A DNA stretch of 64,000 nucleotides, taken from the IMG/VR virus record IMGVR_UViG_3300045988_167643; one strand, written 5' to 3'. Positions 8,605 to 26,683 of this stretch are shown one piece after another (the first letter of the stretch is position 1; every line of letters begins with the position of its first letter). A program made the translations under genes and the position numbers. This DNA is from a virus. Below the pieces are notes generated by a model that saw nothing but the letters and a program-made list of their open reading frames with translations, did not search any database and was not told where the DNA came from.

Positions 8605-8605
8605 T

Positions 8606-9640
8606 ATGAACATTGAAGAGATTAAGAAAAAAGTAGCTGGTCCGGACTATGATTTTCTGAGAAACAATGAACACCTTGGCTCCAACATTATTTTGTTGGG
8701 GTTAGGTGGAAGCTATAGCTATGGTACTCAAAAATCTGACGGAACGAGCGATTTGGATTTGAGGGGAATTTGCTTAAATAAAAAGCATGAAATTCTTACT
8801 AACCAGAATTTTGAACAATTTATCAACGAAGATACAGATACAACTATTTATGCGTTTAATAAGATTATTTATCTTATGGCAGCTTGCAACCCTAATGTTA
8901 TTGAGCTAGGAGGGCTTAAACCAGAACATTATTTATATATTCATCCAATTGGACAAGAAATATTAGATAATGCACATATGTTTTTATCTAAAAGGGCAAT
9001 TCATTCATTTGGTGGTTATGCCTCGCAACAATTAAGAAGAACAAATAACAAGGCAGCTCGTTTAGTAGGACAAACAGAGCGTGAACAACATATTTTAAAT
9101 TCGATAAACAATGCATTTTATACTTTTCCTACAAAATATTTTACATTTCCGGATGATTCTATAAAACTATATGTAGATAAGGCGGTTCAAGAAGACTATG
9201 ATACCGAAGTATTTATGGATATTAATCTAAAGCATTATCCGTTACGTGACTATAAATCTATGTGGTCCGAAATGAATAATATTGTTAAAGATTACTCGAA
9301 AATTGGTAAGCGTAATAAACATGCGGTAGAGCATGGAAAATTAGGTAAGCACATGATGCATTTGGTTCGCCTGTACTATATGTGTTTTGATATTTTGGAA
9401 AATGAGAAGATTATTACATACAGAGAAAAAGAACATTATTTGTTGATGGACATTAGAAATGGTAAATATTTAGATGAAAACAAACAGCCAATTCCAGAAT
9501 TCTTTGAGATGGTAAATGAGTTGGAAAAGAGACTGGAATATGATGCAGAAAACACATCACTTCCAGACAGTCCGGATTATAAAAGAATCAATGAGTTTGT
9601 TATGTCTGTAAACGAAAGAATTGTGAAAGGAGAAATTTAA
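8606..9640 (+). CDS. pol-beta superfamily nucleotidyltransferase (YcgL/RlaP-like by recollection)
   Basis: GLGGSYSYGTQKSDGTSDLDLRGI matches the G[SG]x9-13 D.D NTase signature. ATG 8606 lies 1 nt after the upstream stop (the track start 8588 is TTG). Confidence 0.7.
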   Translation: MNIEEIKKKVAGPDYDFLRNNEHLGSNIILLGLGGSYSYGTQKSDGTSDLDLRGICLNKKHEILTNQNFEQFINEDTDTTIYAFNKIIYLMAACNPNVIELGGLKPEHYLYIHPIGQEILDNAHMFLSKRAIHSFGGYASQQLRRTNNKAARLVGQTEREQHILNSINNAFYTFPTKYFTFPDDSIKLYVDKAVQEDYDTEVFMDINLKHYPLRDYKSMWSEMNNIVKDYSKIGKRNKHAVEHGKLGKHMMHLVRLYYMCFDILENEKIITYREKEHYLLMDIRNGKYLDENKQPIPEFFEMVNELEKRLEYDAENTSLPDSPDYKRINEFVMSVNERIVKGEI

Positions 9641-9642
9641 TT

Positions 9643-12270
9643 TTGTACGGTTTAAAAAGTAGTGAAGTAGAAAAGCAGAGAGAAAAGTATGGTAGTAATA
9701 AACTGCCAGAGAAAAAGCTGAAAACATGGTTTCAGTTCTTTATGGAAACATTTAAAGATCACATAAATCAGATTCTATTAGCAATGATGATTGTATTTAC
9801 AGTTATTGCAGTGTTTGGACAGGGATCTTATTCAGAACCGATTGGTGTAGCAGTAGTATTATTGGCAATCGCATTGTTAGGAATGAACACCGGACTGAAA
9901 AGCCAGAAAAGTACAAAAGAGTTGAAGGATAGGACATCAGTTCATTATTGTAATGTAATCAGAAATGGAAAAATCGAGCATATCAATACAAATGATTTGG
10001 TTGTCGGTGATCTGGTTATCATTCAGTCCGGAGAAGCCATTCATGCAGATGGTTATCTGGTAGAAGGAAATATAAAAGTTGACAACTCTGTATTGAATGG
10101 AGAGTCAGAGCCTTGCAAAAAAACAGCATGGGATAAAGAAGATTCACCTATCGCATTTGGTGGTCAGAGAAAAGCGGATTCAAGTGATTATACAAATTCT
10201 TACGCACTGTTTTCCGGAACAACGGTAACAGACGGTGAAGGAAAGATGATCGTAACTAATGTTGGTGTTGACACAGTAAACGGTCAGACAATTTCGACCA
10301 TTGATGAAATCGAAGAAACAAAGACTTCCCTGGAAATCCAGTTGGAGGATCTTGCTGGACAGATTAGTAAATTCGGGTATATCGGAGCTTTAATCATTGT
10401 TGTAGCATTGATTATCACAAACATTATCCAGTACGGCGGTATCGCTGAATACTTTGGAATGGGTTGGATTGGTATTTTGAAAAATATTCTTACCATTGCA
10501 GTAACTGCGCTTACCATTATTGTCGCAGCAGTACCAGAAGGACTTCCGTTGATTATTAACCTTATTACCGCGCAGAATGCAAAAGTAATGATTAAACACA
10601 ATGTCCTAGCTAAACACACTAACAAGATTCCAGAAGCAGGTAATATTCAGTTACTTTGTACCGACAAAACAGGAACGCTTACAGTTGGGAAACTTGTTCC
10701 AGTAGAGAATGTAATGGGTGATGGAAAATCTATTATAGAAGATGAAAATACATATAATTTGTTTAAATATAATGTCATCTTAAATAGTAGTGCAATGTTT
10801 GATGAAAATAATAAAATTGTTGGTGGAAATGCCACAGAGAGAGCATTACTTTCTTTAGTTAATGCAGATGAGTATAAGAAAATCACTGGATCTACAACTA
10901 TTGTAAACAAGAAGAGTTTTAATAGTGCAAATAAATTTAGTGCTGTTGAAACAGAATATAACGGTGAGACATTTACATATTATAAAGGTGCTCCAGAGAG
11001 ATTGATTGATGCAGCAACAAAATGCGTGACTCTAAACGGTCTTGAGCCTATTGATAAAGATAAACTTAAAATGATTGTAAGATCATATACCGTTAAAGCA
11101 ATGAGAGTAATTGCTACTGGTTATAGTTCTTCTAAGCTTCCAGAAGATGGATTCCCAAATGATCTTATTATTACATCTTTGGTTGCAATTCGTGATGATG
11201 TTCGTCCGGAAGTACCAGAAGCAGTGGCAAAAATGCACGATGCAGGAGTCCAAGTAATGATGGTAACTGGCGACGTTATCGACACAGCGAAAGCTATCGC
11301 AAAAGATGCTGGATTGATCACAAGTGAATCTGATATTGCAATGTCTGCTATTGACTTTGATGCATTGTCAGATGAAGAGGCAAAAGAAAAACTTCCTTAT
11401 ATTAAAGTTATTGCTAGAGCAACACCAAACACTAAACTTAGAATTGTACGTTTAGCTCAAGAACTTGGTCTTTGTGTAGGTATGACTGGCGATGGAACAA
11501 ATGATGCACCAGCACTGAAAGCTGCAGATGTTGGATTCTCAATGGGATCTGGAACAGACGTATGTAAAGAAGCTGGAGATATTATTATCACAGATGACAA
11601 CTTTGTATCTATCACAGATGCGGTTCTTCTTGGAAGAACATTCATGCACAACGTTATGAAGTTCCTGAAATTCCAATTGCCTATCAATGTAGGTCTGGTA
11701 ATTCTAAGTATTTTATATCCGATCATCATGGCTGTAGAAGCAGTCGCAGCAGTACAGATTCTTGTAATTAACATTGTTATGGATTCTCTTAATTCACTTT
11801 CCTTTGGTGGAGAACCGGCGAAAGATGAATATATGAAAGAAAAGCCTATTCCGAAAGGATCAAAACTTCTTTCAAAAGAAACTATCGGTCAGATTGCAGT
11901 ATCAGTTGTGGCATTTATTGGAATCTTTGGTATTACTTTATTACCACCGGTACAGAAAATTTTCGGAAACAATGAGTCTGTTTATGCCACAGTCAGATTT
12001 GCACTACTCATTATGATGGCAACATTCAACGGATTTAATATTAGAACAGACGGATTCAATCTGTTTAAGGGTATCGGCAAAAATAAACTTTTCATCGAAA
12101 TTGCAGTTGTAATTTTCGCCTTAACATTTGCTCTGGCACAGTTCGGGGGAGATATTATGGGATGTACAGCAATGACGCTTATGCAGTGGGGTGTAACAGT
12201 TGTTTTGGCATTTATGATTATCCCAATTGATTTAGTACGAAAAGCTGTTATAAAAATTAAAAGAAAGTAG
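9643..12270 (+). CDS. P-type ATPase, P2 (Ca2+-transporter-like)
   Basis: Carries the phosphorylation motif CTDKTGTLT, TM4 AVPEGLP, MVTGD, and the hinge TGDGTNDAPALKAADVG. About 8-10 hydrophobic helices. TTG start. Confidence 0.9.
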   Translation: MYGLKSSEVEKQREKYGSNKLPEKKLKTWFQFFMETFKDHINQILLAMMIVFTVIAVFGQGSYSEPIGVAVVLLAIALLGMNTGLKSQKSTKELKDRTSVHYCNVIRNGKIEHINTNDLVVGDLVIIQSGEAIHADGYLVEGNIKVDNSVLNGESEPCKKTAWDKEDSPIAFGGQRKADSSDYTNSYALFSGTTVTDGEGKMIVTNVGVDTVNGQTISTIDEIEETKTSLEIQLEDLAGQISKFGYIGALIIVVALIITNIIQYGGIAEYFGMGWIGILKNILTIAVTALTIIVAAVPEGLPLIINLITAQNAKVMIKHNVLAKHTNKIPEAGNIQLLCTDKTGTLTVGKLVPVENVMGDGKSIIEDENTYNLFKYNVILNSSAMFDENNKIVGGNATERALLSLVNADEYKKITGSTTIVNKKSFNSANKFSAVETEYNGETFTYYKGAPERLIDAATKCVTLNGLEPIDKDKLKMIVRSYTVKAMRVIATGYSSSKLPEDGFPNDLIITSLVAIRDDVRPEVPEAVAKMHDAGVQVMMVTGDVIDTAKAIAKDAGLITSESDIAMSAIDFDALSDEEAKEKLPYIKVIARATPNTKLRIVRLAQELGLCVGMTGDGTNDAPALKAADVGFSMGSGTDVCKEAGDIIITDDNFVSITDAVLLGRTFMHNVMKFLKFQLPINVGLVILSILYPIIMAVEAVAAVQILVINIVMDSLNSLSFGGEPAKDEYMKEKPIPKGSKLLSKETIGQIAVSVVAFIGIFGITLLPPVQKIFGNNESVYATVRFALLIMMATFNGFNIRTDGFNLFKGIGKNKLFIEIAVVIFALTFALAQFGGDIMGCTAMTLMQWGVTVVLAFMIIPIDLVRKAVIKIKRK

Positions 12271-12278
12271 GAAAGTAT

Positions 12279-12467
12279 ATGGTTAAAAGAGATAAAGAGT
12301 ACAAGAAAATTGAAAATATAACCTTGTGTTGTTACGCCGTAGGGCTGGGGCTTGCATGTGCAACAAAGTTTCTGCCATTTATCCTTTTAACTGTTATGGC
12401 ATATCCTATTTCATTTCGAGTAGTAGATAATAAATGGAGTGGTAAAAATGCCACTCCTAGAAAATAA
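12279..12467 (+). CDS. small membrane protein (62 aa)
   Basis: ORF track. Two hydrophobic helices, wedged between the ATPase and the first TerD gene. Confidence 0.55.
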
Positions 12468-12481
12468 AAGGAGAAAATATT

Positions 12482-13048
12482 ATGGTAAGTTTAGTAAAAG
12501 GACAGAAAGTAGATCTTACAAAAGGAAACGCAGGATTAAAGCAGATTATCGTTGGTTTGGGATGGGATGCAAATAAGTACGATGGTGATAATTTTGATCT
12601 GGATTCGGCAGCATTTCTTCTTGGAACAAATGGAAAAGTAAGAAATTCAGATGATTTCGTATATTATAACAATCTCAAACATTCAAGTTGTGCAGTTCAG
12701 CATATGGGTGACAATCTTACTGGTTTAGGCAATGGAGACGATGAGCAGATTATCGTTGATTTGACAAAGATTCCGGCTGATGTTGAAAAAATTGCATTTA
12801 CAGTAACTATCTATATGGCAGAAGAGAGACTGCAGAACTTCGGTATGGTTTCCAATTCATACATTAGAATGGTAAACAAAGACAATGATGAAGAGATGAT
12901 CCGCTACGACCTGGGAGAAGATTATTCCACAGAAACAGCAATGGTTCTTGGCGAACTGTATCGCCACAACGGAGAATGGAAATTCAATGCTATTGGACAG
13001 GGATATTCCGGTGGTTTACAGGCACTTTGCAGTAGTTTTGGAGTTTAA
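12482..13048 (+). CDS. terD: TerD-family protein (paralog 1)
   Basis: Canonical TerD signatures: [46 protein letters not shown]. Confidence 0.9.
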
Positions 13049-13066
13049 TGTAGGAGGAAATAAATA

Positions 13067-13720
13067 ATGGCAGTAAGTTTAACAAAAGGGCAAAAAGTAA
13101 ATCTTTCAAAAGCAGTAGAGAAACTGGCAAATGTAACTGTAGGACTTGGATGGGATATGGCACAGAGCGGAAGCAGAATTGATTGTGATTCTTCTGTATT
13201 TGTACTTCGTGAATCCACAAAACGAATTTCAAAGAAAGTGAAATCTGGACTGTTCGGACTTTTTTCAAAGGTAGAAACAGATGAAGTTACAGAATGTAGT
13301 CTGACAAGATCTGATGATATTATTTATTATGGAAATCTTACACATGATAGCGGTTGCGTTAAACATAGGGGTGACAATCTTGTTGGTGGAAAGGGCAAAA
13401 GAAATGATGACGAACAGATTGCGATTGATTTGAAGAAAATGCCGCCGGATATTAAGAAGTTGGTAGTGGTTGTGAATATCTACAACTGTAGAGTTAAGGG
13501 GCAGCATTTTGGAATGATCAAAAACTGTTATGCAAGAATTGTAGATGATGCAACCAAAGAAGAAATTTGTCGCTACAATCTTACAGATGGTTATGACAAA
13601 TGTACAGCACTTATCGTTGGAGAGCTGTATCGTGACGAAAATGATGAATGGCAGTTTAAAGCTATCGGTGAGGGAACACAGGATGGTAGTATTTCTGATA
13701 TGGCAAAAAGATACAAATAA
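13067..13720 (+). CDS. terD: TerD-family protein (paralog 2, divergent, with insertion)
   Basis: Carries GLGWD, DCDSSVFVL, GDNLVGGKGKRNDDEQIAIDL and EWQFKAIGEG. About 25 extra residues (KRISKKVKSGLFGLFSKVETDEVTECS) sit after the first beta hairpin. Confidence 0.85.
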   Translation: MAVSLTKGQKVNLSKAVEKLANVTVGLGWDMAQSGSRIDCDSSVFVLRESTKRISKKVKSGLFGLFSKVETDEVTECSLTRSDDIIYYGNLTHDSGCVKHRGDNLVGGKGKRNDDEQIAIDLKKMPPDIKKLVVVVNIYNCRVKGQHFGMIKNCYARIVDDATKEEICRYNLTDGYDKCTALIVGELYRDENDEWQFKAIGEGTQDGSISDMAKRYK

Positions 13721-13750
13721 CGAAGGAAATAATGAAGGAGATAAAGTGAT

Positions 13751-14329
13751 ATGTCAGTAAGTCTTAAAAAGGGAGATAAAGTTGCACTGTCAAAGGACAG
13801 TATTGTAAATAGAATTTCCGTTTGCCTTGGTTGGGACACAGCAAAGTATGATGATGATGGAGATTTTGATTTGGATGCTTCTGCATTTGTTGTTACCAAA
13901 GCTGGTATAACAAGATCTGATAATGATTTTGTATTTTACAATAACCTGAAACATCCGAGTGGTGGAGTAATCCATAGCGGAGATAATTTAACAGGCTTTG
14001 GAGAGGGTGATGATGAAGTCATCAAAGTGGATCTTGAAAAACTTCCAAAATATGCGGACAGAGTAGTATTTTGTGTGACCATTTTTGAGGCAGAACGCCG
14101 TATGCAGAATTTTGGCATGGTGGAAAACTCATATATCCGTATTGTAGATGATGTAACTGGAAACGAAATTATGAGATACGATCTCAAAGAGAAGTTCGGA
14201 AATTCTACAGCTATCATTGCTGGTGAAATTTATCGTGATGAATCAAAATGGAAGTTTCATGCAGTAGGAGAAGGACGGGATGGCGGTCTTTTAGAACTGT
14301 GCAAAGAATTTGAAGTAGAGGTAGAATAA
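13751..14329 (+). CDS. terD: TerD-family protein (paralog 3)
   Basis: Carries LGWD, DFDLDASAFVV, GDNLTGFGEGDDEVIKVDL and KWKFHAVGEG. Confidence 0.9.
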   Translation: MSVSLKKGDKVALSKDSIVNRISVCLGWDTAKYDDDGDFDLDASAFVVTKAGITRSDNDFVFYNNLKHPSGGVIHSGDNLTGFGEGDDEVIKVDLEKLPKYADRVVFCVTIFEAERRMQNFGMVENSYIRIVDDVTGNEIMRYDLKEKFGNSTAIIAGEIYRDESKWKFHAVGEGRDGGLLELCKEFEVEVE

Positions 14330-14330
14330 A

Positions 14331-15098
14331 ATGACAGTAGGAACAAGTAATGTAGTTATCTTTTGTCTCTCAATCTTGGGAGTAATTATTATTGCGGCAC
14401 TGATTTTAAACAAAACATTTTTCAAGCAACTCGTAATTAAGTTCAGAGGAAGAACGGAAGAAATCGCAAGACAGGACGCTTCTACGCCGGATGGTGCAAG
14501 AGATTATTTCAATAATGCGATCAGAGAAAAAGAGACTCTGTACAGCAAAGCAGAACAGTCTTATACAGAGATTGCCGGTAAACTGGATGAAGCAGAAAAA
14601 GAACAGTACGACCTCAAAAAAGAACTTATGAAGATTGATAAGTCTATCAATAATTGTCTGGATTCTGGTGATGATGATACTGCAAGACAGTATGCTATGA
14701 AGAAGATTACTATTCAGGGTAAGATTGAGACGTTGAAAGATACTATTGAAGAATACAAAAAAGCAAAAGAGCAGCAGAATGAAATCCGTAGTGCTATTAA
14801 GCAGGAACTCGATGAACTCAAAGAGGAAAAAGAAAGAACGGTTTATCAAATGGAAGCAGATCAGCAGATTATTTCTCTGCATGAGGGCATGAATGCAAGT
14901 GCAAGCACAAACGAAAGTGACCGTATGCTTGAAAGAGTGCGCGAGGGTGCGAAGAAAACAAGAGAACGTGCAGCAGGAGCGCAGATTGCTTATGACACAA
15001 GTACAGAGGCAATGGATCGCAGAATGGAAACACAGGAAAGAAATCGTGCGGCTGATGAAGTACTTGCTGAGATGAAACGAAGGAGAAACAACAAATAA
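14331..15098 (+). CDS. membrane-anchored PspA/IM30-like coiled-coil protein
   Basis: N-terminal TM helix (VVIFCLSILGVIIIAALIL) followed by about 215 aa of heptad-rich sequence. Segments align by eye to PspA (DDDTARQYAMKKITIQ.., MLERVREGAKKTRERAAGAQ). Confidence 0.55.
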   Translation: MTVGTSNVVIFCLSILGVIIIAALILNKTFFKQLVIKFRGRTEEIARQDASTPDGARDYFNNAIREKETLYSKAEQSYTEIAGKLDEAEKEQYDLKKELMKIDKSINNCLDSGDDDTARQYAMKKITIQGKIETLKDTIEEYKKAKEQQNEIRSAIKQELDELKEEKERTVYQMEADQQIISLHEGMNASASTNESDRMLERVREGAKKTRERAAGAQIAYDTSTEAMDRRMETQERNRAADEVLAEMKRRRNNK

Positions 15099-15193
15099 TG
15101 ATTGTTATAAATATCGGGGCATTTATCATTTGTATTGCAACAGCTTTTATTGTAGGTTTCTGCACTGGAAAAGTAAAGAAGAAAAAGAATTAA
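15098..15193 (+). CDS. micro membrane ORF (31 aa)
   Basis: Read by hand. ATG overlaps the upstream stop (TAATG). Sequence is MIVINIGAFIICIATAFIVGFCTGKVKKKKN. Confidence 0.35.
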   Translation: MIVINIGAFIICIATAFIVGFCTGKVKKKKN

Positions 15194-15410
15194 GAAGTTG
15201 AATAGTGGAATGTTGGCTTAGAAGCAGCCATCATCTAAGGAGTAGGGCTTTAAGTCTAAAGGTATGAAAAACTTCAATCGAAGATAAACGAGTAAGAGAA
15301 TAGGATGTAAAGAGTTATGATACGTCACCCCTTAACAGGTAAGGACAAGTCCCCTTTTGGCGTAATAGCACACCACTATTAATATTTTAGATGCATTTAA
15401 AAAATTAGGT

Positions 15411-15546
15411 CGTGCAGTGGCAGAATGGACATATGCGTATAATAATGCTTTATTTACAAAATTAGGCATATTATAATGGCGAATTTATGTCAGTAAACAA
15501 AATTGATAAAATTTGCTTATATAGGGTTCAAATCCCTATCTGCACA
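15411..15546 (+). ncRNA. 136-nt tRNA-shaped RNA with oversized anticodon-like and variable-like arms
   Basis: Acceptor-like pairing GTGCAG(15412-17)/CTGCAC(15540-45). Type-II-like D arm TG-GCA-GAATGGACATA-TGC. Canonical T arm ATAGGG-TTCAAAT-CCCTAT. Two long internal hairpins. Confidence 0.45.
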
Positions 15547-15573
15547 TTAAATCTTAAAGAAAGGAGAATAAAA

Positions 15574-16953
15574 ATGATAGAGGGTATTGTATTACCAGAG
15601 TCCGTAAAATCTATATTTTACGTACTTAATCGTAATGGTTATGAAGCCTATCTTGTAGGTGGAGCTGTACGAAATTCTATTATAGGATTACCTGTACACG
15701 ACTGGGATATCTGCACAAATGCCTTGCCGGAAGACGTATGTAAATTATTCCGTAGTAAAGGATTTCGTGTAGTAGAAACAGGCTTGCAGCATGGCACTGT
15801 AACTGTCATGGTAAATTATCGTGGATACGAGATAACTACTTATAGAACTGATGGAAAATATACTGATAGTCGCCATCCAGATTCTGTAAAATTTATCGGA
15901 AGTATTCACGAAGATTTAGCAAGACGTGATTTTACAATGAATGCAATTGCTTATAATGACGATGATGGATTTATTGATCCGTTCAATGGACTAAAAGATA
16001 TTGAGAATAAAGTTATACGATGTGTAGGCACACCTGTTGATAGATTCACAGAAGATCCGTTACGTATTATGAGAGCTGTAAGGTTTGCCGCCCAATTAGG
16101 ATTCCATATTGAAAACTATACCAATATTGCAATGGTACAAACAAATGATGGTTTGTCAAAGATTTCTGCAGAAAGAATACAATCAGAGCTGTGTAAGATT
16201 CTTATTTCAGATCATCCTGAGTATGTACTTGATTATTATATTGATATTTCACCGGCAATTCCTGAGTTAAGTAAGATGATGGGATGCTCTCAAAATAACA
16301 TGTATCACATTTATGATGTATGGAATCACACCAGATTTTCATTAACAGCTTGTAGAATACATGAATTAGAGACCAGACTTGCTATCTTATTGCACGATAT
16401 TGGTAAACCAGAATCAAAAACTGTAGATCGAGGAATTGAGCACTTCTATGGACATGCTGTTAAAAGTGCAGAGATTACTGAATCACTACTTCGTAGACTA
16501 AAATTTTCCAACGAGATTAGGGAATCTGTAGTAGAACTTGTAGCAAGTCATGATATGGAAATTGTACCAAAACCAAATAAAATTAAAAAATATCTGAATA
16601 AACTTGGTGAAGCACAACTTAGAAGACTGTTAGATGTAAGATTCTGCGATATTATGGCACACAATCCGTATTATGCAAAAGATCGTCTATGGGAAATTTT
16701 TCGTGCAGAAGAAATATTAAATGAAGTTCTGGCAGAAGCGAAGTGTTTTTCTATAAAAGATTTGGCTATAAATGGGAAGGATATTATGGAACTTGGCGTA
16801 CCGGAAGGACCAGATGTCGGAAAATGGCTTAAATATGCATTAGAGGAAGTAATTAATGACAGGTTGGATAACGGCAAAGAAGATATTCTAAACGATATTG
16901 AGGCTAAATTATTTGCAGAAAGAGAAGAAGGTAATGACGAGGAAATGTCCTAA
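15574..16953 (+). CDS. cca: CCA-adding enzyme (tRNA nucleotidyltransferase) with HD domain
   Basis: Carries GGAVRNSIIGLPVHDWDI (the class II NTase GGxVR..D.D motif), RDFTMNA, and the HD motif LLHDIGKP. AAGGAG RBS precedes ATG 15574. The track's upstream extension covers the tRNA-like T arm. Confidence 0.9.
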   Translation: MIEGIVLPESVKSIFYVLNRNGYEAYLVGGAVRNSIIGLPVHDWDICTNALPEDVCKLFRSKGFRVVETGLQHGTVTVMVNYRGYEITTYRTDGKYTDSRHPDSVKFIGSIHEDLARRDFTMNAIAYNDDDGFIDPFNGLKDIENKVIRCVGTPVDRFTEDPLRIMRAVRFAAQLGFHIENYTNIAMVQTNDGLSKISAERIQSELCKILISDHPEYVLDYYIDISPAIPELSKMMGCSQNNMYHIYDVWNHTRFSLTACRIHELETRLAILLHDIGKPESKTVDRGIEHFYGHAVKSAEITESLLRRLKFSNEIRESVVELVASHDMEIVPKPNKIKKYLNKLGEAQLRRLLDVRFCDIMAHNPYYAKDRLWEIFRAEEILNEVLAEAKCFSIKDLAINGKDIMELGVPEGPDVGKWLKYALEEVINDRLDNGKEDILNDIEAKLFAEREEGNDEEMS

Positions 16954-17122
16954 ATGTGGTCAATATATGAGTTCTGCAATTAAATACGATTATGGACACC
17001 CTATTGTTGTACATGAGTGTTCATGTGGCTATTCTGAATTGCAAGAGTGGATGAAATATAGCGACAAACTAAATTATGATAATGTTACAAAAACTTGTAA
17101 AGATTCAATTGGAGGAATTTAA
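16934..17122 (+). CDS. small zinc-ribbon protein
   Basis: CPKCG ... CSCG pattern. ATG 16934 has a purine-rich RBS and overlaps the cca 3' end. Confidence 0.5.
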   Translation: MTRKCPKCGQYMSSAIKYDYGHPIVVHECSCGYSELQEWMKYSDKLNYDNVTKTCKDSIGGI

Positions 17123-17790
17123 TGAGATTTTATATTGCAGACAATCATTTTCATCATGCAAAAATGAATACTGCTATGGATAAACGTGGTTTTGAATCAC
17201 TGGAAGCAATGCATGATTACATGATTAAGCAGTGGAATTCTGTTGTAAGAAAGAACGATGAAGTTGTAATCCTTGGAGATTTTTCACTTGGGAAGGGTGA
17301 GGAAACAAATGGAATACTTCGTCAGTTAAATGGGAAGAAGTTTTTAGTAAATGGTGGACATGACAAGTTTTTACAAGACAGGAAATTTGACCAGTCACTA
17401 TTTCAGTGGATTAAGCCTTATGCAGAAATGCATGATGATGGAAGAAAAGTAGTCTTATGTCACTATCCAATATTTTGCTATAATGGACAGTTTCGTACTG
17501 ATAAAGATGGTAAACCCATTACCTGGATGCTGCATGGACACACTCATCTTACGGAAGATCAGGAATTAGTGGAACAGTTCAAAGACATAACGAGAAGTAC
17601 ATTACGTAAATCAAAATATGATAATGAATCAAAAACAATTCCGGTACAGATGATTGATTGTTTTTGCATGTTATCTGATTATAAACCACTTACATTGGAC
17701 CAGTGGATTGAAATGGAACAAAGTGGTGTTATCAAGGATTTGATTGATCGAAAATGGTATTACAGTGACAATAAGAGGAGCAGTGAATGA
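17122..17790 (+). CDS. calcineurin-like metallophosphoesterase
   Basis: Carries the motifs ADNHFHH, ILGDFS, GGHD and HGHTH. Confidence 0.8.
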   Translation: MRFYIADNHFHHAKMNTAMDKRGFESLEAMHDYMIKQWNSVVRKNDEVVILGDFSLGKGEETNGILRQLNGKKFLVNGGHDKFLQDRKFDQSLFQWIKPYAEMHDDGRKVVLCHYPIFCYNGQFRTDKDGKPITWMLHGHTHLTEDQELVEQFKDITRSTLRKSKYDNESKTIPVQMIDCFCMLSDYKPLTLDQWIEMEQSGVIKDLIDRKWYYSDNKRSSE

Positions 17791-18908
17791 GTATTTATAT
17801 TCCTAAGAAGATTAAAGTGGGGTATCAGGATCGTAGTGATACTTATACAGGAAAACTTGCGTATGTAATTTATTATGATGAGAAGAATAAATTGCGTAAG
17901 GAGAAGAGTTGGAATGGTTGGAGAGATAATACAATCGATCCAAATGATTTTGATAACGAACCAACCAGAGGTTTTGTATTAAATAAAAAGGTTGGCGACT
18001 ATGGTGGCAGTTGGGGCGAACACCGACATGCATATTGTAGAATTTACGATCCAAGAGGATTTGAGTTTGAGATTACAATTGAAAATTTGCTTTTCATTTT
18101 GGAACATGCGGATTGCTTAAAAGGTAAGGGACTTGACGGAGAATTTGTATATGGTTGGGATGGTAAAGATTTAGTGCTCATTCCTGTGGATTCTCCGGAT
18201 TATAGAGAAATAAAAGCTTATACAGAAAAGATTCAAAATGGGAAGAAATTTAAAGGTAAAGATCTTATTATTGGAGCAACGTATCTGACAAAGAACAATG
18301 GAAAATGGATATATATGGGTAGATTCGATAAATGGGATACTGAAATTAACAGATACCATACTTATTGGCGAGAAAGTGGTGGATATTGGATTGAATCATT
18401 AGATGATACATGGACCATACGAAACGATGATAAACATAGTGCATACAAACAAATAAATAAAGGGGAATATTATTGGTTCTGTACAGGTAAAAATAATGGA
18501 TGGTGTAGATATCAAAATTATACTTTTGAGAGTAGAAAAAGTATTGGAGACATATTGATTGATTGCATTGATGAAAAACCAAATCAAAAGTATTCTGAAA
18601 TGTTTTCTGATCTTGAGAATAATCACTTTAGCTATAACCCAATAGATTATAATTCTATGACATATGCTAATTTATCTTATGAAAAACTTTTGGAAATAAC
18701 AAATTTTGAAAATTTTTATAAAATGGATGCATACGATAAAGATTTAAATTACTTTGAAGCGTATAAAAATCGTGAAACTGGATTGTTTAAATACAATAAA
18801 AAAGACTATTTATTATCAGAATTATATAATTTATTAAAACCAAAATATAGAATATATAAGCATCTGGATGGTAAAGAATTCCATGATTATGCCAAAAATA
18901 TATATTAA
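17787..18908 (+). CDS. hypothetical protein (373 aa)
   Basis: Long ORF with a coupled start (ATGA). No family recognised. Confidence 0.7.
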   Translation: MSIYIPKKIKVGYQDRSDTYTGKLAYVIYYDEKNKLRKEKSWNGWRDNTIDPNDFDNEPTRGFVLNKKVGDYGGSWGEHRHAYCRIYDPRGFEFEITIENLLFILEHADCLKGKGLDGEFVYGWDGKDLVLIPVDSPDYREIKAYTEKIQNGKKFKGKDLIIGATYLTKNNGKWIYMGRFDKWDTEINRYHTYWRESGGYWIESLDDTWTIRNDDKHSAYKQINKGEYYWFCTGKNNGWCRYQNYTFESRKSIGDILIDCIDEKPNQKYSEMFSDLENNHFSYNPIDYNSMTYANLSYEKLLEITNFENFYKMDAYDKDLNYFEAYKNRETGLFKYNKKDYLLSELYNLLKPKYRIYKHLDGKEFHDYAKNIY

Positions 18909-18928
18909 ATAAAAAAGGAGATAAAACT

Positions 18929-19345
18929 ATGGCAAACAAAAATGACGAAACAATCTTATTATTAAAAAAGAAGGTAGAATTACAGAGAGAAGAACTTGCG
19001 AAGCTTCCAAGATCACTGCAGTCTGAAACTTCTACTGTGTTTAGACCTGATACAGAAAATATGAATCTTCGTGTAATGAGTGTTGAACAGCTTAAATTAT
19101 TAAAGGTAAAATTACATACTTATAAGATGGCAGCACTTGATTTAAATATGGATCTTGATGAGTTTACAATTTCTGGATTTACTATTGACAAATGGATGCA
19201 TGATATTGATATGCAGATTTCTGTATTAACTAGAGCAGAAAAAGAGAAGAAATTAAAAGAGACAGAAAACACTTTGAATAAGCTTTTATCTGATGATAAG
19301 CGTACAGAGCTTGAACTTGAAGCTTTGGCAAAAATGCTTATGTAA
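18929..19345 (+). CDS. coiled-coil hypothetical protein
   Basis: ORF track, with AAGGAG RBS. Confidence 0.65.
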   Translation: MANKNDETILLLKKKVELQREELAKLPRSLQSETSTVFRPDTENMNLRVMSVEQLKLLKVKLHTYKMAALDLNMDLDEFTISGFTIDKWMHDIDMQISVLTRAEKEKKLKETENTLNKLLSDDKRTELELEALAKMLM

Positions 19346-19406
19346 AAAAATTTATAGCTTTTGTGCTATATATCATAAAACAATTATATCAATATGAGGT
19401 GAAAAC

Positions 19407-19625
19407 ATGACAAAGAAAAATGCATGGAACAAAGTTTATGAAGAAACAGAAAAAACTTACAAGGTGAAAGGTGAAGATGGTAAATGGACAAAAGTTACTG
19501 AAAATGTGACTGTTCTTGCACAGTCTGGGATGAAACCTGGTAAGAAGGAGATTGCTTTTGGAAGAGCTATCCAGAAAATCAAGACAGAGAAGCCAAAAGC
19601 ATTTGCAGGCGATTGGACAAAATAA
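19407..19625 (+). CDS. small lysine-rich hypothetical protein
   Basis: ORF track, with GAGGTG RBS. Confidence 0.55.
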   Translation: MTKKNAWNKVYEETEKTYKVKGEDGKWTKVTENVTVLAQSGMKPGKKEIAFGRAIQKIKTEKPKAFAGDWTK

Positions 19626-19637
19626 GAGGGGATTAGT

Positions 19638-19811
19638 ATGATTTCGTTCTACATTTTAGTAATTATTGGAGCAATTTTATTATGGATTTTACTTGCAAAT
19701 ATCGGTACATTCAAGTTTATCGGATGGATTTCATCACATTTAAGTAATGGTGTTAAAGATGCAATGGAAGATAAAGAAAATGAAAACAAAGAGGATAAAA
19801 AAGATGAGTAA
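19638..19811 (+). CDS. small membrane protein (57 aa), possible partner of the SPFH protein
   Basis: Read by hand, with GAGGGG RBS. Has a hydrophobic N-terminus (ISFYILVIIGAILLWILLANIG) and an acidic tail. The stop overlaps ATG 19804 of the next gene. Confidence 0.45.
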   Translation: MISFYILVIIGAILLWILLANIGTFKFIGWISSHLSNGVKDAMEDKENENKEDKKDE

Positions 19812-20766
19812 AAAAAGAACTGGTGGAATTATTGCTGGAGCTGTTATTGTTGGTGGACTTGCATTGGGTGGTTTAAACACAGTTAAGATTGACCCTGGTT
19901 ATATTGGGATTATATACGATGCTACTCATGGTGGAGTTAATGGCGAAACTATGAAAGAGGGATGGAACTTTAAAACGCCTACACAGAAAGTAACGGAATA
20001 TTCAATCGCCCTCGAGCAGTCTTATCTTACTAAAGATGATAAGGGGGATTCTGATAAAGACGAAAGCTTTAATATTCCAACATCTGATGGAAAATCAATC
20101 AATGTAGATGTGGAATTCTCATATCGTTTTGATGAGGATAGAATTACAGAAATTTTCAAAACATTTAAAGGTAAGAGTGGTGAAAGTATTAAAAATACAT
20201 TCATTAAACCTAAGATTATTGCGTGGTCTCAGGAAGTATCTGCAAAATATCCTGTAACTGATGTATTTGGTGATAAAAGGCAGGAGCTTAATCAGGCACT
20301 TGATGATTATCTCAAAGCAAAATTCGACAAATACGGAATTATTATTGATACTGTAAACTTTACAAGAATTGAAACAGATGAAGAGACTACAGCTGCAATT
20401 CAGAAAAAGGTAACAGCACAGCAGGATCAGGAGCTTGCAACAATTGAAGCTAAGACTGCGAAGATTAATGCTGAAAAAGAGAAAGAAGTTGCTCTTATCA
20501 CAGCAGAGCAGAATAAAGAAACCGCACAGATTAATGCTGAACAGGCAAAAATCAAAGCAGAAGGTCAGGCAGAAGCTACTAAGATTGCTGCAGAAGCCGA
20601 AGCAGAAGCAAACAAGAAGATTGCAGAGAGCTTAACTCCAGAACTTATTGAGAAAATTAAGATGGAGCGTTGGAATGGCGAACTTCCAATGGTTAGTGGA
20701 TCTTCCGGAACAATTATTAATATGACAGACGATGCCAATGAAACAACTGTCGAAGAAGAGAAATAA
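19804..20766 (+). CDS. SPFH/band-7 (prohibitin/flotillin-like) membrane protein
   Basis: N-terminal TM (GGIIAGAVIVGGLALGG), then GYIGIIYD...EGWNFKTP typical of SPFH, then an Ala/Glu-rich coiled coil. The internal ATG 19804 is preferred over the track start. Confidence 0.75.
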   Translation: MSKKRTGGIIAGAVIVGGLALGGLNTVKIDPGYIGIIYDATHGGVNGETMKEGWNFKTPTQKVTEYSIALEQSYLTKDDKGDSDKDESFNIPTSDGKSINVDVEFSYRFDEDRITEIFKTFKGKSGESIKNTFIKPKIIAWSQEVSAKYPVTDVFGDKRQELNQALDDYLKAKFDKYGIIIDTVNFTRIETDEETTAAIQKKVTAQQDQELATIEAKTAKINAEKEKEVALITAEQNKETAQINAEQAKIKAEGQAEATKIAAEAEAEANKKIAESLTPELIEKIKMERWNGELPMVSGSSGTIINMTDDANETTVEEEK

Positions 20767-20767
20767 T

Positions 20768-20923
20768 ATGGATAAAAGAGAATTACATAATAATATTATT
20801 TACGCTTTAACCGAGGCTGATAGTGTAAATGAGTCTATTAATATCTTATGCGAATGTGGTATTTACATTGATAAAGCCGAATCGTTTAAAGATGTTTTAG
20901 AGAAAATTTATGAAGTTTGGTAA
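20768..20923 (+). CDS. hypothetical protein (51 aa)
   Basis: ATG 20768 lies 2 nt after the upstream stop, in the frame of track ORF 20732..20923. Confidence 0.4.
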   Translation: MDKRELHNNIIYALTEADSVNESINILCECGIYIDKAESFKDVLEKIYEVW

Positions 20924-20975
20924 TAAATAACAATCTGGTCTGCCTTAACCGGTGGACCAGAGAAATGGAGAAGAT

Positions 20976-21227
20976 ATGATAATAATTAAAACATTTATTA
21001 TGTTGATTTTATGTGTAGTATTTCCGATTTGCTTATTTACATGGATATTGGCAATGATCTGGATGTTTACACCATTTGATCCATTAAAAAGATTATGTCA
21101 TGACATTCTAGGTTGGCATAAGCCAAGTGGAGTATATCATCATTTTTCAAAAGGTGTTCGGAAGAAATGTAAAATTTGCGGATGCGATATTGTATCTGAT
21201 GGAGCCGGTGGTTGGAGAAAATGGTAA
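20976..21227 (+). CDS. membrane protein with C-terminal CKICGC motif
   Basis: GGAG lies 6 nt upstream of ATG 20976. TM helices precede a Cys cluster. Confidence 0.55.
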   Translation: MIIIKTFIMLILCVVFPICLFTWILAMIWMFTPFDPLKRLCHDILGWHKPSGVYHHFSKGVRKKCKICGCDIVSDGAGGWRKW

Positions 21228-21231
21228 AAGG

Positions 21232-21492
21232 ATGGATCTTATGAGTAAAAATAATAAGGATTACGAGGTTTTATACGCATTAAGAGATAAAAAAACTAAA
21301 AAAATTGTCAGAGCAACAAAATGCAAGGGCGGATCATTTTATAAAAACCGATATATGTGCGAAAAACGTTGCACTCAGTTTAATGATGTACATAAATTAG
21401 CAAATTGTACAAATGATTTTGAATATGAAGTCGGTGAATATGCAGTTGTAGATATTGAAAAATATAAAGAATTAATTGGAGAAAAGCAGTGA
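21232..21492 (+). CDS. hypothetical protein (86 aa)
   Basis: The internal ATG 21232 just after the previous stop is preferred. The track start overlaps the previous gene in another frame. Confidence 0.5.
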   Translation: MDLMSKNNKDYEVLYALRDKKTKKIVRATKCKGGSFYKNRYMCEKRCTQFNDVHKLANCTNDFEYEVGEYAVVDIEKYKELIGEKQ

Positions 21493-22247
21493 TTTATATA
21501 ACAGGTGACACGCATGGTGATGTAACAAGACTAAGTATGGATAATTTTCCAGAGCAGAAAACGTTTACCGATCAAAATGAAAATTATGTAATTATTTGTG
21601 GTGACTTCGGATTGGTTTGGAATTATCTAACTGAAACACATTCAGAAAAGTATTGGCTTAACTGGCTTGAGAATAAAAAGTTTACAACTCTTTTTGTTGA
21701 TGGTAATCACGATTGTCATCCTAGACTTGCAGACTATCCTGTAAAAGAATGGAATAGTGGACTGGTCCATGAGATTAGACCACATGTATTGCATCTGATG
21801 AGAGGACAAGTTTTTAATATTGATGGCTGCACAATATTTACTTTTGGTGGTGCAAGATCCCATGATATTGAGAATTTGCTTGATTTAGATGATCCAGACT
21901 TTACAGAGAAACAAAAACAACTTAGAAAAGATAATTTATTTTATAGAGTAAAAGGCATCTCATGGTGGGAAGAAGAAATGCCAACTCAAGAAGAGATGCA
22001 AATTGGATTAGATAATTTAGAAAATAACAACTGGAAAGTTGATTATATAATTACACATGACTGTACTTCAAGTACAAAAGCTTTGTATAGTCATGGGTCT
22101 TTTAAGACAGATGAACTAAATGCATATTTAGAAGAAATTAAATATAAGTGTGAATTTAAGAAATGGTTCTTCGGACACTTACATGATGATAAGCAGATAA
22201 ATGATAAAGAAATTTTACTATATCACCAGATTGTGAGGATTTGGTAA
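21489..22247 (+). CDS. metallophosphoesterase (Ser/Thr phosphatase-like)
   Basis: Carries the motifs GDTHGD, CGDFG, DGNHD and GHLH. GTG start coupled to the upstream stop. Confidence 0.8.
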   Translation: MIYITGDTHGDVTRLSMDNFPEQKTFTDQNENYVIICGDFGLVWNYLTETHSEKYWLNWLENKKFTTLFVDGNHDCHPRLADYPVKEWNSGLVHEIRPHVLHLMRGQVFNIDGCTIFTFGGARSHDIENLLDLDDPDFTEKQKQLRKDNLFYRVKGISWWEEEMPTQEEMQIGLDNLENNNWKVDYIITHDCTSSTKALYSHGSFKTDELNAYLEEIKYKCEFKKWFFGHLHDDKQINDKEILLYHQIVRIW

Positions 22248-23023
22248 TGGGATATTGGAATAGGAAAACTGAATTAAAGAAAAAGGCGAATGTTCATACA
22301 AATAAAATGGAAGAGCTATATAGCTTGGAAATTACAGAATGTGTAAACAATACAAAAGTATATGACCAAGAGTTCTATTGTAAAAAAGAATGCGATAGTA
22401 AGCCGGATTTTCATCAGAAAATCACTGTAGAAGATATGGATAGTGTACAGGCAATATTTTCTTATGAAAACACAGGTAAAACAGCAGTTCTTAATTTTGC
22501 AAGCTATAAAAATCCAGGTGGCAAATTTTTAGATGGATCTTCTGCACAGGAAGAAATGCTTTGCCACAGTTCCTTCCTATATAATGTGTTATCTGAATTT
22601 GATGAAGATTATTATGAATTCAATAGAATGACTAAGAACTTCGCATTATATACAAATCGTGCATTATATAGTCATGATGTTTTATTCATAAGAGGCGATG
22701 AAGAGATTTGTGTAGATGTTATTACTTGTGCAGCACCAAACAAAACTGCAGCTCAGAAATATTGTGGTAAATCTGATTTTGATTGTAATTCTGCAATGGT
22801 TGATCGTATACATTTTATGCTTGATATTGCACAAGAAGAGGAAGTTAATACATTAATTCTTGGCGCATGGGGATGTGGTGTATTTGGTAATGATGCAGAA
22901 TTTGTTGCGAATAGTTTCAAAAAAGAATTAGAAGAATATTATACCGATACTTTTGAGAATATTATATTTGCGATTCCTGGCGGTACGAACTATATGGTAT
23001 TCAAGAGGGTGTTTGGTAAATAA
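22247..23023 (+). CDS. bacterial-type PARG-like macrodomain protein (TIGR02452/DUF2263-like)
   Basis: LNFASYKNPGGKFLDGSSAQEEMLCHSS, ITCAAPN and LILGAWGCGVFGND match the signatures I recall for this family. TAATG coupling. Confidence 0.75.
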   Translation: MGYWNRKTELKKKANVHTNKMEELYSLEITECVNNTKVYDQEFYCKKECDSKPDFHQKITVEDMDSVQAIFSYENTGKTAVLNFASYKNPGGKFLDGSSAQEEMLCHSSFLYNVLSEFDEDYYEFNRMTKNFALYTNRALYSHDVLFIRGDEEICVDVITCAAPNKTAAQKYCGKSDFDCNSAMVDRIHFMLDIAQEEEVNTLILGAWGCGVFGNDAEFVANSFKKELEEYYTDTFENIIFAIPGGTNYMVFKRVFGK

Positions 23024-23041
23024 ATAGATTGGAGATATTAA

Positions 23042-25363: not shown

Positions 25364-25435
25364 AGCATCTTAGTGTAATGGTTATCACGGATGACCTTGG
25401 ATCATCAGATGTTGGTTCGATTCCAACAGGTGCCG
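25364..25435 (+). tRNA. near-canonical tRNA, anticodon UUG (Gln) if read conventionally, but with C33 and an A1.C72 mismatch
   Basis: Hand fold: AGCATCT-TA-GTGTAATGGTTATCAC-G-GATGA-CCTTGGA-TCATC-AGAT-GTTGG-TTCGATT-CCAAC-AGGTGCC-G. Confidence 0.5.
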
Positions 25436-25506
25436 TTAACTCAGAAATGAGTATTTCAAAGTTAAAAATTTAAAGAATAAAATTCAATTTAAAGGAGAAG
25501 AAAATT

Positions 25507-26157
25507 ATGACAAAAGAAACTATGACAGTACATAAAGCGTTAGCAGAAATTAAAATCCTTAAAGACAGAATCCAGAGTGAGATTTACAATTCAATTTTTG
25601 TATCTTGCAAAAAAAATTCTCAGTCAAAAATTTCTGGAATGGATGTTGATGAATATGAGAAGATTATTACAGGATGTTACGACAAAGATGTAGATCTTAT
25701 GAGTAGACTTGAAGCTCTGCAGAGAGCAGTAATGCTTTCAAATGCAGTAACAAAAGTTAAGATTAAAATTGGAGAAAATGAAGAAGAACGTACTGTAGCA
25801 GAAGCAATCAACATGAAAAATAACAGTATGATGTTCAAGAGACAGATGCTTGACAGAATGCAGCAACAGCTTTCTCAGGCACAGGCAAAAACAAACAAAG
25901 AGAATGAGATTCTTGAAAGTAAGTCAGAAAATTATGTAACTGGTCTTTTTGGACAGAAAGAGGGTAAAACTTCTACCGATGAAGTTACAAAAGCCAAACA
26001 GCAGTACATTGATCTTAACACATGGGAGTTGATTGATCCGATAAATGTGCAAAATAAAATCCGTGTTTTATCTGACGAAATTTCATCATTTGAAGCAGAA
26101 GTAGACTCTGTTTTAAGCACAAGTAACGCATTAACAACAGTTACAATTGAGTATTAA
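25507..26157 (+). CDS. coiled-coil hypothetical protein, the only clear CDS inside the RNA island
   Basis: ORF track, with AAAGGAG RBS. Confidence 0.7.
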   Translation: MTKETMTVHKALAEIKILKDRIQSEIYNSIFVSCKKNSQSKISGMDVDEYEKIITGCYDKDVDLMSRLEALQRAVMLSNAVTKVKIKIGENEEERTVAEAINMKNNSMMFKRQMLDRMQQQLSQAQAKTNKENEILESKSENYVTGLFGQKEGKTSTDEVTKAKQQYIDLNTWELIDPINVQNKIRVLSDEISSFEAEVDSVLSTSNALTTVTIEY

Positions 26158-26554: not shown

Positions 26555-26683
26555 TTGGTAGCATGATTATATCGGCTCTGTGGTTTGTACAAGGCTGATA
26601 AGTGGTGAAGTTCATCTTATAAATAAATCAATGCGGTTATTAAAACCTTGTTTCTTAGTTCTAACAAAGCCGCAGTTGGAACG

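Follow-up and report, generated by a model that had tools for sequence, protein, structure and literature searches.

A 64,000-nucleotide (nt) stretch of viral DNA (IMG/VR virus record IMGVR_UViG_3300045988_167643), termed the window here, carries on its plus strand, at positions 15411-15546, a 136-nt element with the shape of a tRNA. The element lies immediately 5ʹ of cca (15574..16953, +), a gene identified by Pfam and by its orthologues as encoding a CCA-adding tRNA nucleotidyltransferase with an HD domain. The enzyme is of class II, its domains being the PolyA_pol head, an RNA-binding domain, HD and tRNA_NucTran2_2. The gap 5ʹ of cca is 475 nt long and holds two conserved RNA blocks: the element and, upstream of it, module A (15201..15380, +), a mimic of 23S rRNA's GTPase-associated center (GAC). 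An A/U-rich spacer of 27 nt (15547..15573, +), with the Shine-Dalgarno sequence GGAG at 15563-15566, leads from the element to the cca ATG at 15574, and no terminator-like site was found between the RNAs and cca. The GAC mimic, the element and cca appear to belong to one transcription unit.

Written 5ʹ to 3ʹ, the element reads CGUGCAG-UG-GCAGAAUGGACAUAUGC-G-hairpin-AUG-hairpin-UAU-AUAGGGUUCAAAUCCCUAU-CUGCACA. Its minimum free energy is −38.3 kcal/mol, compared with −23.8 ± 3.3 kcal/mol for dinucleotide shuffles, of which 0/200 were as stable (z = −4.35). The single-sequence fold comprises an acceptor stem (GUGCAG/CUGCAC), a D arm (GCA-GAAUGGACAUA-UGC), two long hairpins and a T arm (AUAGGG-UUCAAAU-CCCUAU). 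The acceptor 5ʹ strand CGUGCAG (15411..15417, +) pairs at six of its seven positions with the 3ʹ strand CUGCACA (15540..15546, +), leaving C15411 opposite A15546 as a C1.A72 mismatch; pair 3:70 is U-A. Next come the linker U8 G9 (15418..15419, +), assigned from a 50-sequence core alignment, and a type-II-like D arm (15420..15436, +) whose 3-base-pair (bp) stem, GCA/UGC, closes an 11-nt loop containing G18 G19. Insert hairpin 1 (15438..15475, +), an AT-rich stem of about 16 bp with a bulge and a 3-nt loop, takes the position of the anticodon arm, and insert hairpin 2 (15478..15517, +), also AT-rich, with 16 bp and the 7-nt loop AAACAAA, takes that of the variable arm. The T arm (15521..15539, +) has a 6-bp stem, AUAGGG/CCCUAU, and the loop UUCAAAU; the elbow residues of the window element are G18 G19, U54, U55, C56 and A58. 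Together, the acceptor and T stem form a stack of 13 positions (7+6), as against the canonical 12 (7+5). No CCA is encoded after the acceptor 3ʹ strand, which is followed by UUAAAU, nor is one encoded elsewhere in the lineage of the window. The discriminator is U73 under a 7-position acceptor and would be A if the acceptor were read as 6 bp.

An initial annotation of the window, made from the sequence alone, had described a tRNA-shaped RNA at this site, with a type-II-like D arm bearing the GG loop, a T arm and an acceptor stem, next to a phage gene for a CCA-adding enzyme. This outline is upheld by the stability of the fold, by conservation in relatives with compensatory changes in three helices, and by the Pfam-supported cca start 27 nt downstream. 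Several details are revised. The two inserted stems, said to carry loops of 17 and 22 nt, pair on into hairpins of about 16 bp. The T arm, called canonical, has a stem of 6 bp rather than 5, with covariation at the sixth pair, which is A-U in the window and G-C in the majority of relatives. Of the proposed 6-bp acceptor with a possible C1.A72 mismatch, the mismatch stands, whereas family-wide pairing extends the acceptor to seven positions.

Orthologous loci, designated by L-numbers, were collected via the CCA protein. The element is nearly unchanged in 11 IMG/VR contigs (57-222 kb) and is also present in other metagenome contigs from this phage lineage, and the order of frame and cca is kept across orthologues with 76-98% CCA identity, the frame being the acceptor, D arm and T arm. 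Where the CCA proteins are 76-87% identical, the frame is kept and the middle is swapped. The acceptor stem, the 3-bp type-II D arm and the 6-bp T stem are constant in the orthologues, with compensatory changes in all three helices. Thus, the acceptor of relatives reads AAUGCAG/CUGCAUU (L060, L064), CAUUCGG/CCGAAUA (L079/L112) or one of many other pairings, the D stem GCG/CGC, GAG/CUC, GUG/CAC, CUG/CAG or ACG/CGU, and the T stem ACGAGG/CCUCGU, GUGUGG/CCACAC, AUGUGG/CCACAU or GCAUGG/CCAUGC.

The segment between the D and T arms varies from one orthologue to the next. It is a 9-nt linker, CGUGCAGUGGCAGAAUGGCUAUGCGUAAUUAUACGAGGUUCAAAUCCUCGUCUGCACA, in L008 and L066 (58 nt in total); two AT-rich hairpins in the window type (136 nt); an unrelated, conserved insert of about 105 nt with a second T-arm-like hairpin in L060 and L064 (157 nt); and a different insert of about 125 nt in L062 (176 nt). 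Because L008 and L066 lack both hairpins and other orthologues carry unrelated inserts, the two large arms are lineage-specific and dispensable, and not the defining feature that the initial annotation had made of them. A single G.U to A-U change is found in insert hairpin 2 of L003 and L011. Neither hairpin recurs in the window, and a search of 50,697 phage records gave no significant match (best E = 0.7); an origin from a repeat or mobile element was therefore rejected. The intergenic region as a whole found no match to known phages by DNA similarity, and the 17-mer GTGCAGTGGCAGAATGG occurs in IMG/VR only in the same 11 contigs, apart from chance matches inside coding sequence. No leader of this kind is present at cca genes whose products are ≤53% identical.

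Two of the alternative inserts were characterized further. The insert of about 105 nt (L060 2823-2980, L064 and L112/L079) is conserved and has compensatory changes of its own (CAGUAUC..GAUACUG versus CGGCAUC..GAUGCUG). Within it lies a second canonical T-arm hairpin, GACGG-UUCGAUU-CCGUC, and the insert is probably a functional cargo RNA. An rRNA-like piece in the L062 insert, suspected by comparison with a Firmicute 23S sequence, was unsupported by blastn against E. coli 23S rRNA or by Rfam and was dropped.

The element was also compared with established RNA classes. It has the acceptor stem, the GG-containing D arm and the U-N-C-R-A-N-Y T loop of a canonical tRNA. Where a tRNA has its anticodon arm, with 5 bp in the stem and 7 nt in the loop, the element has the hairpin of about 16 bp with a 3-nt loop. 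ARAGORN calls no tRNA at the element or at the orthologous loci, and Rfam returns no match for the element at the gathering score, nor at E up to 10 in a 1-kb scan, in keeping with the earlier remark that the RNA exceeds the length of a tRNA and falls short of that of a tmRNA. In intron mode, ARAGORN produces a forced model, a tRNA-Asp(GUC) with a 45-nt intron at 32/33, a mismatched anticodon stem and a 24-nt unpaired variable loop. An intron-containing tRNA is ruled out by the orthologues from which the anticodon arm is entirely missing. A tRNA with an unusual insertion, as proposed in the initial annotation, therefore fits as the evolutionary origin, in which the anticodon and variable region of a tRNA-Leu-like frame was replaced, and fails as an ordinary intron-containing tRNA. 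A tmRNA was rejected since ARAGORN makes no such call even at lowered thresholds, Rfam finds no match, G3.U70 is missing, and insert-free orthologues exist. The suggested likeness to YrlA-type Y RNAs did not hold either. The topology is wrong, the ends forming an acceptor stem and not a Ro-binding stem; there is no Rfam match; and no TROVE domain was found in the 28 open reading frames (ORFs) of the window scanned with Pfam, which include all of ≥400 amino acids (aa) and part of the smaller ones. Instead, the element is a tRNA-like RNA that lacks an anticodon arm and descends from a tRNA of type II (tRNA-Leu-like); it retains the top half and elbow of the tRNA, and the anticodon and variable region has been replaced by hairpins that close relatives dispense with.

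The same frame is widespread in phages. Searching IMG/VR for the D-arm motif found in L060/L062 gave at least 120 loci; among the D-arm matches listed, about 28 are genuine tRNA-Leu(UAA/UAG) genes and about 90 draw no ARAGORN call. Frame counts are lower bounds, as the scans were motif-based. More than 100 phage contigs carry the frame, cultured Lactobacillus phages included. From the D-arm scan and the earlier loci, 63 distinct frames of 58-254 nt (median 130) were extracted. They share a plan consisting of a 7-position acceptor of free sequence, U8 G9, a D arm GCG-GAAUAGGUAGA-CGC, an insert, "AU" and a 6-bp T stem. Pair 1:72 is formed in 53/63 frames and is C.A in seven, the window included; because it is usually paired across the family, the acceptor is 7 bp long and the C.A of the window is a 1:72 mismatch. 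The first T-stem pair is G-C in 54 of the 63. The T loop is UGCAAAU in 51, UUCAAAU in 9 (including the window) and UGCGAAU in 3, and position 55 is G in 54/63. The discriminator N73 varies (A in 32, U in 18, C in 8 and G in 5). The window element can be aligned in every column with 49 other frames and has the features of the family: U8 G9, a GAAU(A)GG-type D loop, the 6-bp T stem, a T loop of the form U(G/U)C(A/G)AAU, and no CCA. It deviates in its D loop (GAAUGGACAUA versus GAAUAGGUAGA), its UUCAAAU T loop and the C1.A72 mismatch.

Covariation supports this structure. In the 50-sequence core alignment, 98.4% of cells are paired, compared with 71.8% in column shuffles and 34-44% in slid-partner controls. 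Double changes occur in 14/16 pairs, and the covariation score is 0.74 versus 0.19 for shuffled alignments, a value reached in 0/500. U8, G9 and G10 are invariant, and all six T-stem pairs form in 100% of the sequences, although the pairing percentages are partly circular for the six acceptor pairs and five T pairs that frame extraction demanded. Outside this selection, pair 1:72 is paired in 82%, the D stem in 97% and the sixth T pair in 100%, each with several pair types. Similarly, the invariance of the D arm is circular, because a D-arm motif was used for scanning; an independent scan was therefore made with the T arm alone (ATGNNNGGTGCAAATCC). Among previously unseen loci, 44 matches have a 6-bp T stem, and for 40 of them a complementary acceptor strand lies no more than 330 nt away. 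About 30 of those 40 continue after this strand with UG and then a D arm of this type (GCGAAAUAGGUAGACGC, GCGGAACAGGUAGACGC), whose stems covary (ACG..CGU, CUG..CAG, GUG..CAC). G.U pairs occur only on this strand, which favors a structure at the RNA level over a DNA signal. Covariation in related phages, the check proposed in the initial annotation, is seen in the frame helices.

The genomic settings of the frames are diverse. About 20/63 end 18-37 nt (mode 27) 5ʹ of a start codon that has a Shine-Dalgarno sequence; about one third have a gene start within about 40 nt, and about half have none within about 130 nt. Among frames without a nearby gene start, a few adjoin tRNA genes or clusters, and some are followed by what looks by eye like a terminator hairpin. 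In Lactobacillus phage Lenus, the frame sits between two tRNA-Arg genes, and in the temperate phage Sha1 it lies between rinA and HNH/terminase genes. The genes 3ʹ of the frames are unrelated to one another: cca in the window lineage and, elsewhere, genes for a PolA-type DNA polymerase, an HNH endonuclease, a LysM protein (possibly an endolysin) and small ORFs. The cca association is, therefore, a trait of this lineage and not of the family, so that the tie to the CCA enzyme proposed earlier holds locally and not where frames precede DNA polymerase, HNH or LysM genes. None of the cultured phages with a frame, among them the Lactobacillus plantarum phages Lenus, Sha1, LP65 and ATCC 8014-B2, has any annotation at the site, and Rfam at its gathering score recognized no frame in 16 loci; the element belongs to a large frame family that is unannotated in the records examined.

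Some tRNA derivatives in other phages have further peculiarities. In the frames of L157, L207, L228 and L233, the T loop holds an additional insertion (..GGUGACUAUACGAGUA...CUCGUCAAAUCC..). A 138-nt sequence (L089 4060-4197, −) and a 58-nt one (L128 2288-2345, +), both from tRNA arrays of other phages, are matched by the Rfam tRNA model and hint at further odd-sized tRNA derivatives.

Upstream of the element, module A gives a local match to the large subunit (LSU) rRNA model of Rfam (E = 1.9e-4) and is closed by the helix AAUAGUGG/CCACUAUU, which stands where the top of helix 42 would be. The GAC is the docking site of L11, EF-G, EF-Tu and RelA on 23S rRNA. A copy of helix 43 (H43) that includes the A1067 loop, UUAGAAGCA (15210-15234, +), is 25/25 identical to E. 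coli 23S 1057-1081 by blastn, and the loop of helix 44 (H44) with A1095, GCGUAAUAGC (15360-15369, +), is 10/10 identical to E. coli 23S 1091-1100. The 5ʹ strand of helix 44 is interrupted by an insert of about 125 nt that contains the conserved motif UCACCCCUUAACAGGUAAGGA (15325-15345, +). An IMG/VR scan with UCACCCCNUAACNGGUAAGGA, the conserved motif of this insert, identified about 25 further phage lineages carrying module A. Over these lineages, the closing helix covaries fully (AUAGUGG/CCACUAU, AUACUUGG/CCAAGUAU, GUUAGG/CCUAAC, AGUAUUUAA/UUAAAUACU and more), as do the upper H43 stem (GGC/GCC, GGA/UCC, AGC/GCU) and pairs 1057:1081 and 1058:1080. The non-canonical core (G1059, U1060, A1077, U1078, C1079) and both loops stay rRNA-like across lineages. 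To judge from this pattern of covariation and constancy, module A is a maintained structural mimic of the GAC, not a stray rRNA fragment.

Module A is nearly absent from cells, with five true matches in 185,579 species genomes; these lie on phage-like contigs or on contigs binned in metagenome-assembled genomes of Clostridia, Eubacteriales and Paludibacter. A cellular ribosomal-protein leader was considered and rejected, as no ribosomal-protein gene occurs in the roughly 340 nt around each of the five matches. In other phages, module A is found inside tRNA arrays, with one ordinary tRNA a few nt before it and another a few nt after, or, alternatively, is followed, as in the window, by a frame with a 6-bp T stem. 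Rfam has no family for module A beyond the local LSU rRNA match. No description of a phage GAC mimic or of the frame family was found in the full-text literature (subscription journals not covered) or in Rfam 15. An in-frame "AAII-stop" in the upstream RNA had the look of a tmRNA tag and proved to be the H43 hairpin of the rRNA mimic. The ribosome-binding region of cca, UUAAAGAAAG at 15554-15563, is identical to 23S rRNA 1082-1091, beside H43, and is also present in L060 and L064; with E ~1, this match is probably due to chance.

Genes for RNA repair and removal of ADP-ribose are found nearby: RlaP (8588-9640), cca, two phosphoesterases and a PARG-like protein (22241-23023) (PMC7824862). The region 6556-24274, which also holds an AAA ATPase gene, as a whole has an RNA-repair and anti-ADP-ribosylation flavor. 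Between RlaP and the RNAs, an insertion at 9643-15098 of the window, relative to the related phage L060, brings in a P-type ATPase gene, three TerD genes and one that is weakly PspA-like, and a 682-aa protein takes the place of the DUF8224 protein that precedes RlaP in L060. For a 373-aa neighbor (17787-18908), considered as a candidate RNA ligase, neither Pfam nor PDB sequences gave a match. Mu/Tn7-like transposition genes, encoding a Mu transposase C-terminal domain, an rve-like domain and a TniB ATPase, lie at 56099-59180 (+).

ARAGORN calls four tRNAs elsewhere in the window (Gln, Gln, Met and Leu; 25364-28572). A 3ʹ CCA is encoded in 0/4, so all of them need a CCA-adding enzyme. Three of the four share a mostly non-coding region of about 2.7 kb (26160-28900) with a RAGATH-27 RNA (85 bits; 26261-26346, +) and a tRNA recognized only by Rfam (39 bits; 26684-26752, +). 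Two RNAs that the tRNA finders do not call occur in the same region. One, at 26814-26879 (+), is a compact 66-nt cloverleaf with anticodon AAA, missed by both finders, that consists of an acceptor (GGGGCAU/AUGUCCU), a D arm (CUUC-GAUGGC-GAAG), an anticodon arm (AGACU-UUAAAUA-AGUCU), a 3-nt variable region and a T arm (CUGGG-UUCGACU-CCCAG). The other, at 27227-27284 (+), is another tRNA-like RNA without an anticodon, a mini form of about 58 nt, AGACACAU..CUGAG-UUCAACC-CUCAG-AUGUGUCU, which neither ARAGORN nor Rfam reports.

With moderate confidence, the element is interpreted as a tRNA-derived processing and stability module, acted on by RNase P, RNase Z and CCA addition. These two nucleases and the CCA-adding enzyme read the acceptor, T arm and elbow of a tRNA and not its anticodon arm, and the frame would be recognized by the host enzymes that read these parts in any tRNA. 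RNase P would cut at the 5ʹ end of the frame and, in doing so, also make the mature 3ʹ end of the upstream rRNA-mimic RNA. A cut by RNase Z past the acceptor stem would release the cca mRNA near its ribosome-binding site. The CCA-adding enzyme would then finish the 3ʹ end of the frame, a step proposed because no CCA is encoded. If the frame is read by these enzymes, it would punctuate the transcript by setting the 3ʹ end of the GAC mimic and the 5ʹ end of the cca mRNA, and the outcome would be a compact, nuclease-resistant small RNA with correctly punctuated neighbors. Behind the GAC mimic, the frame occupies the position that ordinary tRNAs hold in other phages, where they are placed so that they could define the 3ʹ end of the mimic in like manner.

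By analogy, the element is most likely a natural counterpart of the "tRNA scaffold" and follows the same logic as the T4 species 1 RNA in its tRNA cluster. In MALAT1/mascRNA and in tRNA scaffolds, a tRNA-shaped module sets the ends through RNase P and RNase Z and stabilizes its cargo, and mascRNA receives CCA. Those systems differ in being eukaryotic or artificial, and cleavage of the phage element is only predicted. The closest natural analogue is the T4 species 1 RNA (rnaC, which occurs with species 2 RNA, rnaD), a small stable RNA in a tRNA cluster that derives from a tRNA precursor transcript (PMC2330249) and whose function is still unknown (PMC9697503). When folded, the 139-nt rnaC forms a 7-position acceptor-like stem from both ends, two long hairpins and the T arm CCGGG-UUCGAAU-CCCGG. 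It therefore has the plan of the element, with an end stem, two hairpins and a T arm next to the 3ʹ strand. However, rnaC lacks a recognizable D arm, has a 5-bp T stem and two U.U acceptor mismatches, comes from a phage with a proteobacterial host, and adjoins neither a GAC mimic nor cca; no sequence resemblance was noticed by eye, without alignment.

Other tRNA-like RNAs are more distant. Structurally, the nearest analogue is a minimalist E. coli tRNA-Leu, which, according to PMC9976931 in citing Larkin et al. 2002, is leucylated if A73 and the D/T-loop contacts are intact. Its architecture of acceptor, type-II D arm and T arm is that of the insert-free orthologues; unlike them, it is a laboratory construct. 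In the phage frames, the T stem is 6 bp long, position 55 is mostly G, the discriminator varies and the acceptor sequence is free. YrlA-type Y RNAs, some of them phage-encoded, also have a tRNA-like domain with D-loop/T-loop elbow mimicry (PMC4201824), and this likeness extends to the element. However, the ends of YrlA form the Ro-binding stem, with the acceptor-like arm closed, and YrlA is linked to rsr (TROVE); the element has neither feature. The tRNA-like domain of tmRNA resembles the element in its acceptor and T arm, in the large insertion between the halves and in the lack of an anticodon arm, whereas the element is without G3.U70, a tag reading frame and pseudoknots and has insert-free versions.

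Several points weigh against a processing and stability module. The transcript ends, the cleavages and the CCA addition are all inferred. The 13-position stack could hinder RNase Z or the CCA-adding enzyme. G is rare at position 1 across the family, which is unusual for tRNAs and perhaps poor for RNase P. Moreover, if the frame merely punctuated the transcript, it would be hard to see why the D arm and the odd T loop UGCAAAU are so strongly conserved and why insert-free versions of 58-60 nt persist, two observations that suggest a specific binding partner. Punctuation does not account for the 13-position stack either, and all three observations lend some weight to a decoy role and to a cis-acting role. 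Finally, start codons follow at a fixed distance of about 27 nt, which could mean translational control.

A decoy or sponge role is possible but unlikely. The released frame, alone or with the GAC mimic, would soak up a host factor that attacks or senses translation parts; candidates may include toxins that modify or cleave tRNA ends, ADP-ribosyltransferases targeting the GAC, the stringent factor and LeuRS. Such a role would suit the conservation of the D arm and T loop far past the needs of folding while the acceptor sequence is free, as well as the existence of insert-free mini versions (L008, L066 and L227). It is also in keeping with the pairing of the frame with a faithful GAC mimic, whose helices covary around unchanged tertiary-core nucleotides (G1059, U1060, A1067, A1077-C1079 and the A1095 loop). 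An incoming tRNA touches this very H43 loop with its elbow on the ribosome. The toxin Tre23 ADP-ribosylates H44 of the GAC (PMC8661411), and genes for RNA repair and ADP-ribose removal (RlaP, cca, phosphoesterases, PARG-like; PMC7824862) lie close by. However, no candidate target is singled out, and many frames have neither a GAC mimic nor repair genes.

E. coli LeuRS still recognizes a minimal tRNA-Leu without anticodon and variable arms, and leucylation needs A73 and the elbow contacts G18:U55, G19:C56 and U54:A58 (PMC9976931). Set against this need for A73, the discriminator of the frames is not conserved, being A in 32/63 and U73 in the window, and the G55 of most members should weaken the G18:U55 contact (PMC9976931). 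The variable discriminator and G55 argue against leucylation as a general role. An extended version of the decoy idea, in which a single transcript yields two excised translation mimics (the GAC and a tRNA-Leu-like elbow and acceptor) that protect ribosomes and tRNAs from defense toxins or misinform a stringent or defense sensor, is speculative and considered improbable.

That the frame stays on the mRNA as a cis-acting 5ʹ untranslated region is doubtful and receives little weight here. In this role, it would serve as a cap against 5ʹ exonuclease or as an operator; in the operator version, a tRNA-binding protein, either the CCA enzyme itself or LeuRS, would adjust translation from a site 12-15 nt away from the Shine-Dalgarno sequence, much as at the thrS operator. 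Such a function would account for the steadiness of the frame-to-start spacing, about 27 nt in many unrelated contexts, for the order of frame and cca kept over orthologues with 76-98% CCA identity, and for the lack of a terminator-like site from frame to cca, and the 13-position stack might disfavor 3ʹ cleavage. However, the downstream genes are functionally unrelated, so autoregulation of the CCA enzyme cannot be the general role; roughly half of the frames have no gene start within about 130 nt; and the cca genes of more distant phages are leaderless.

Decay provides a further explanation, in which the element is a functionless tRNA pseudogene held by linkage. The loss of the anticodon arm, the rejection of the element by standard tRNA finders and the hypervariable insert could be read in this way. 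This is very improbable, given that compensatory changes uphold the helices over many lineages, that the same sub-structure recurs at >100 loci, and that the mini versions are trimmed cleanly and not degraded at random. A tRNA that functions in decoding despite an intron or oversized arms, a Y RNA of the YrlA type or an RNA resembling tmRNA, to which the overall tRNA shape and the tRNA-Asp(GUC) output of intron-mode ARAGORN might have pointed, is refuted as far as sequence analysis goes by the forced intron model, by L008 and L066 without an anticodon arm, and by the lack of an Rfam match at E = 10, a tmRNA call and a detected TROVE gene.

RNAs that are tRNA-shaped without being tRNAs escape standard annotation, and the more than 100 phage loci reported here include genetically tractable cultured Lactobacillus phages. 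In nature, an acceptor, a D arm and a T arm suffice as tRNA parts, with arbitrary cargo in place of the anticodon arm from 9 nt up (frames to 254 nt in total), which amounts to a natural design rule for RNA scaffolds. The T4 species 1 and 2 RNAs were sequenced in the 1970s, and their role has been an open question since. The frame family provides comparative leverage on the role of small stable RNAs in phage tRNA clusters. If either RNA of the window is a decoy, it would represent a new, RNA-based kind of anti-defense mechanism; if true, a double-mimic decoy would give a function to the stable RNAs of phage tRNA clusters, including the T4 species 1 class.

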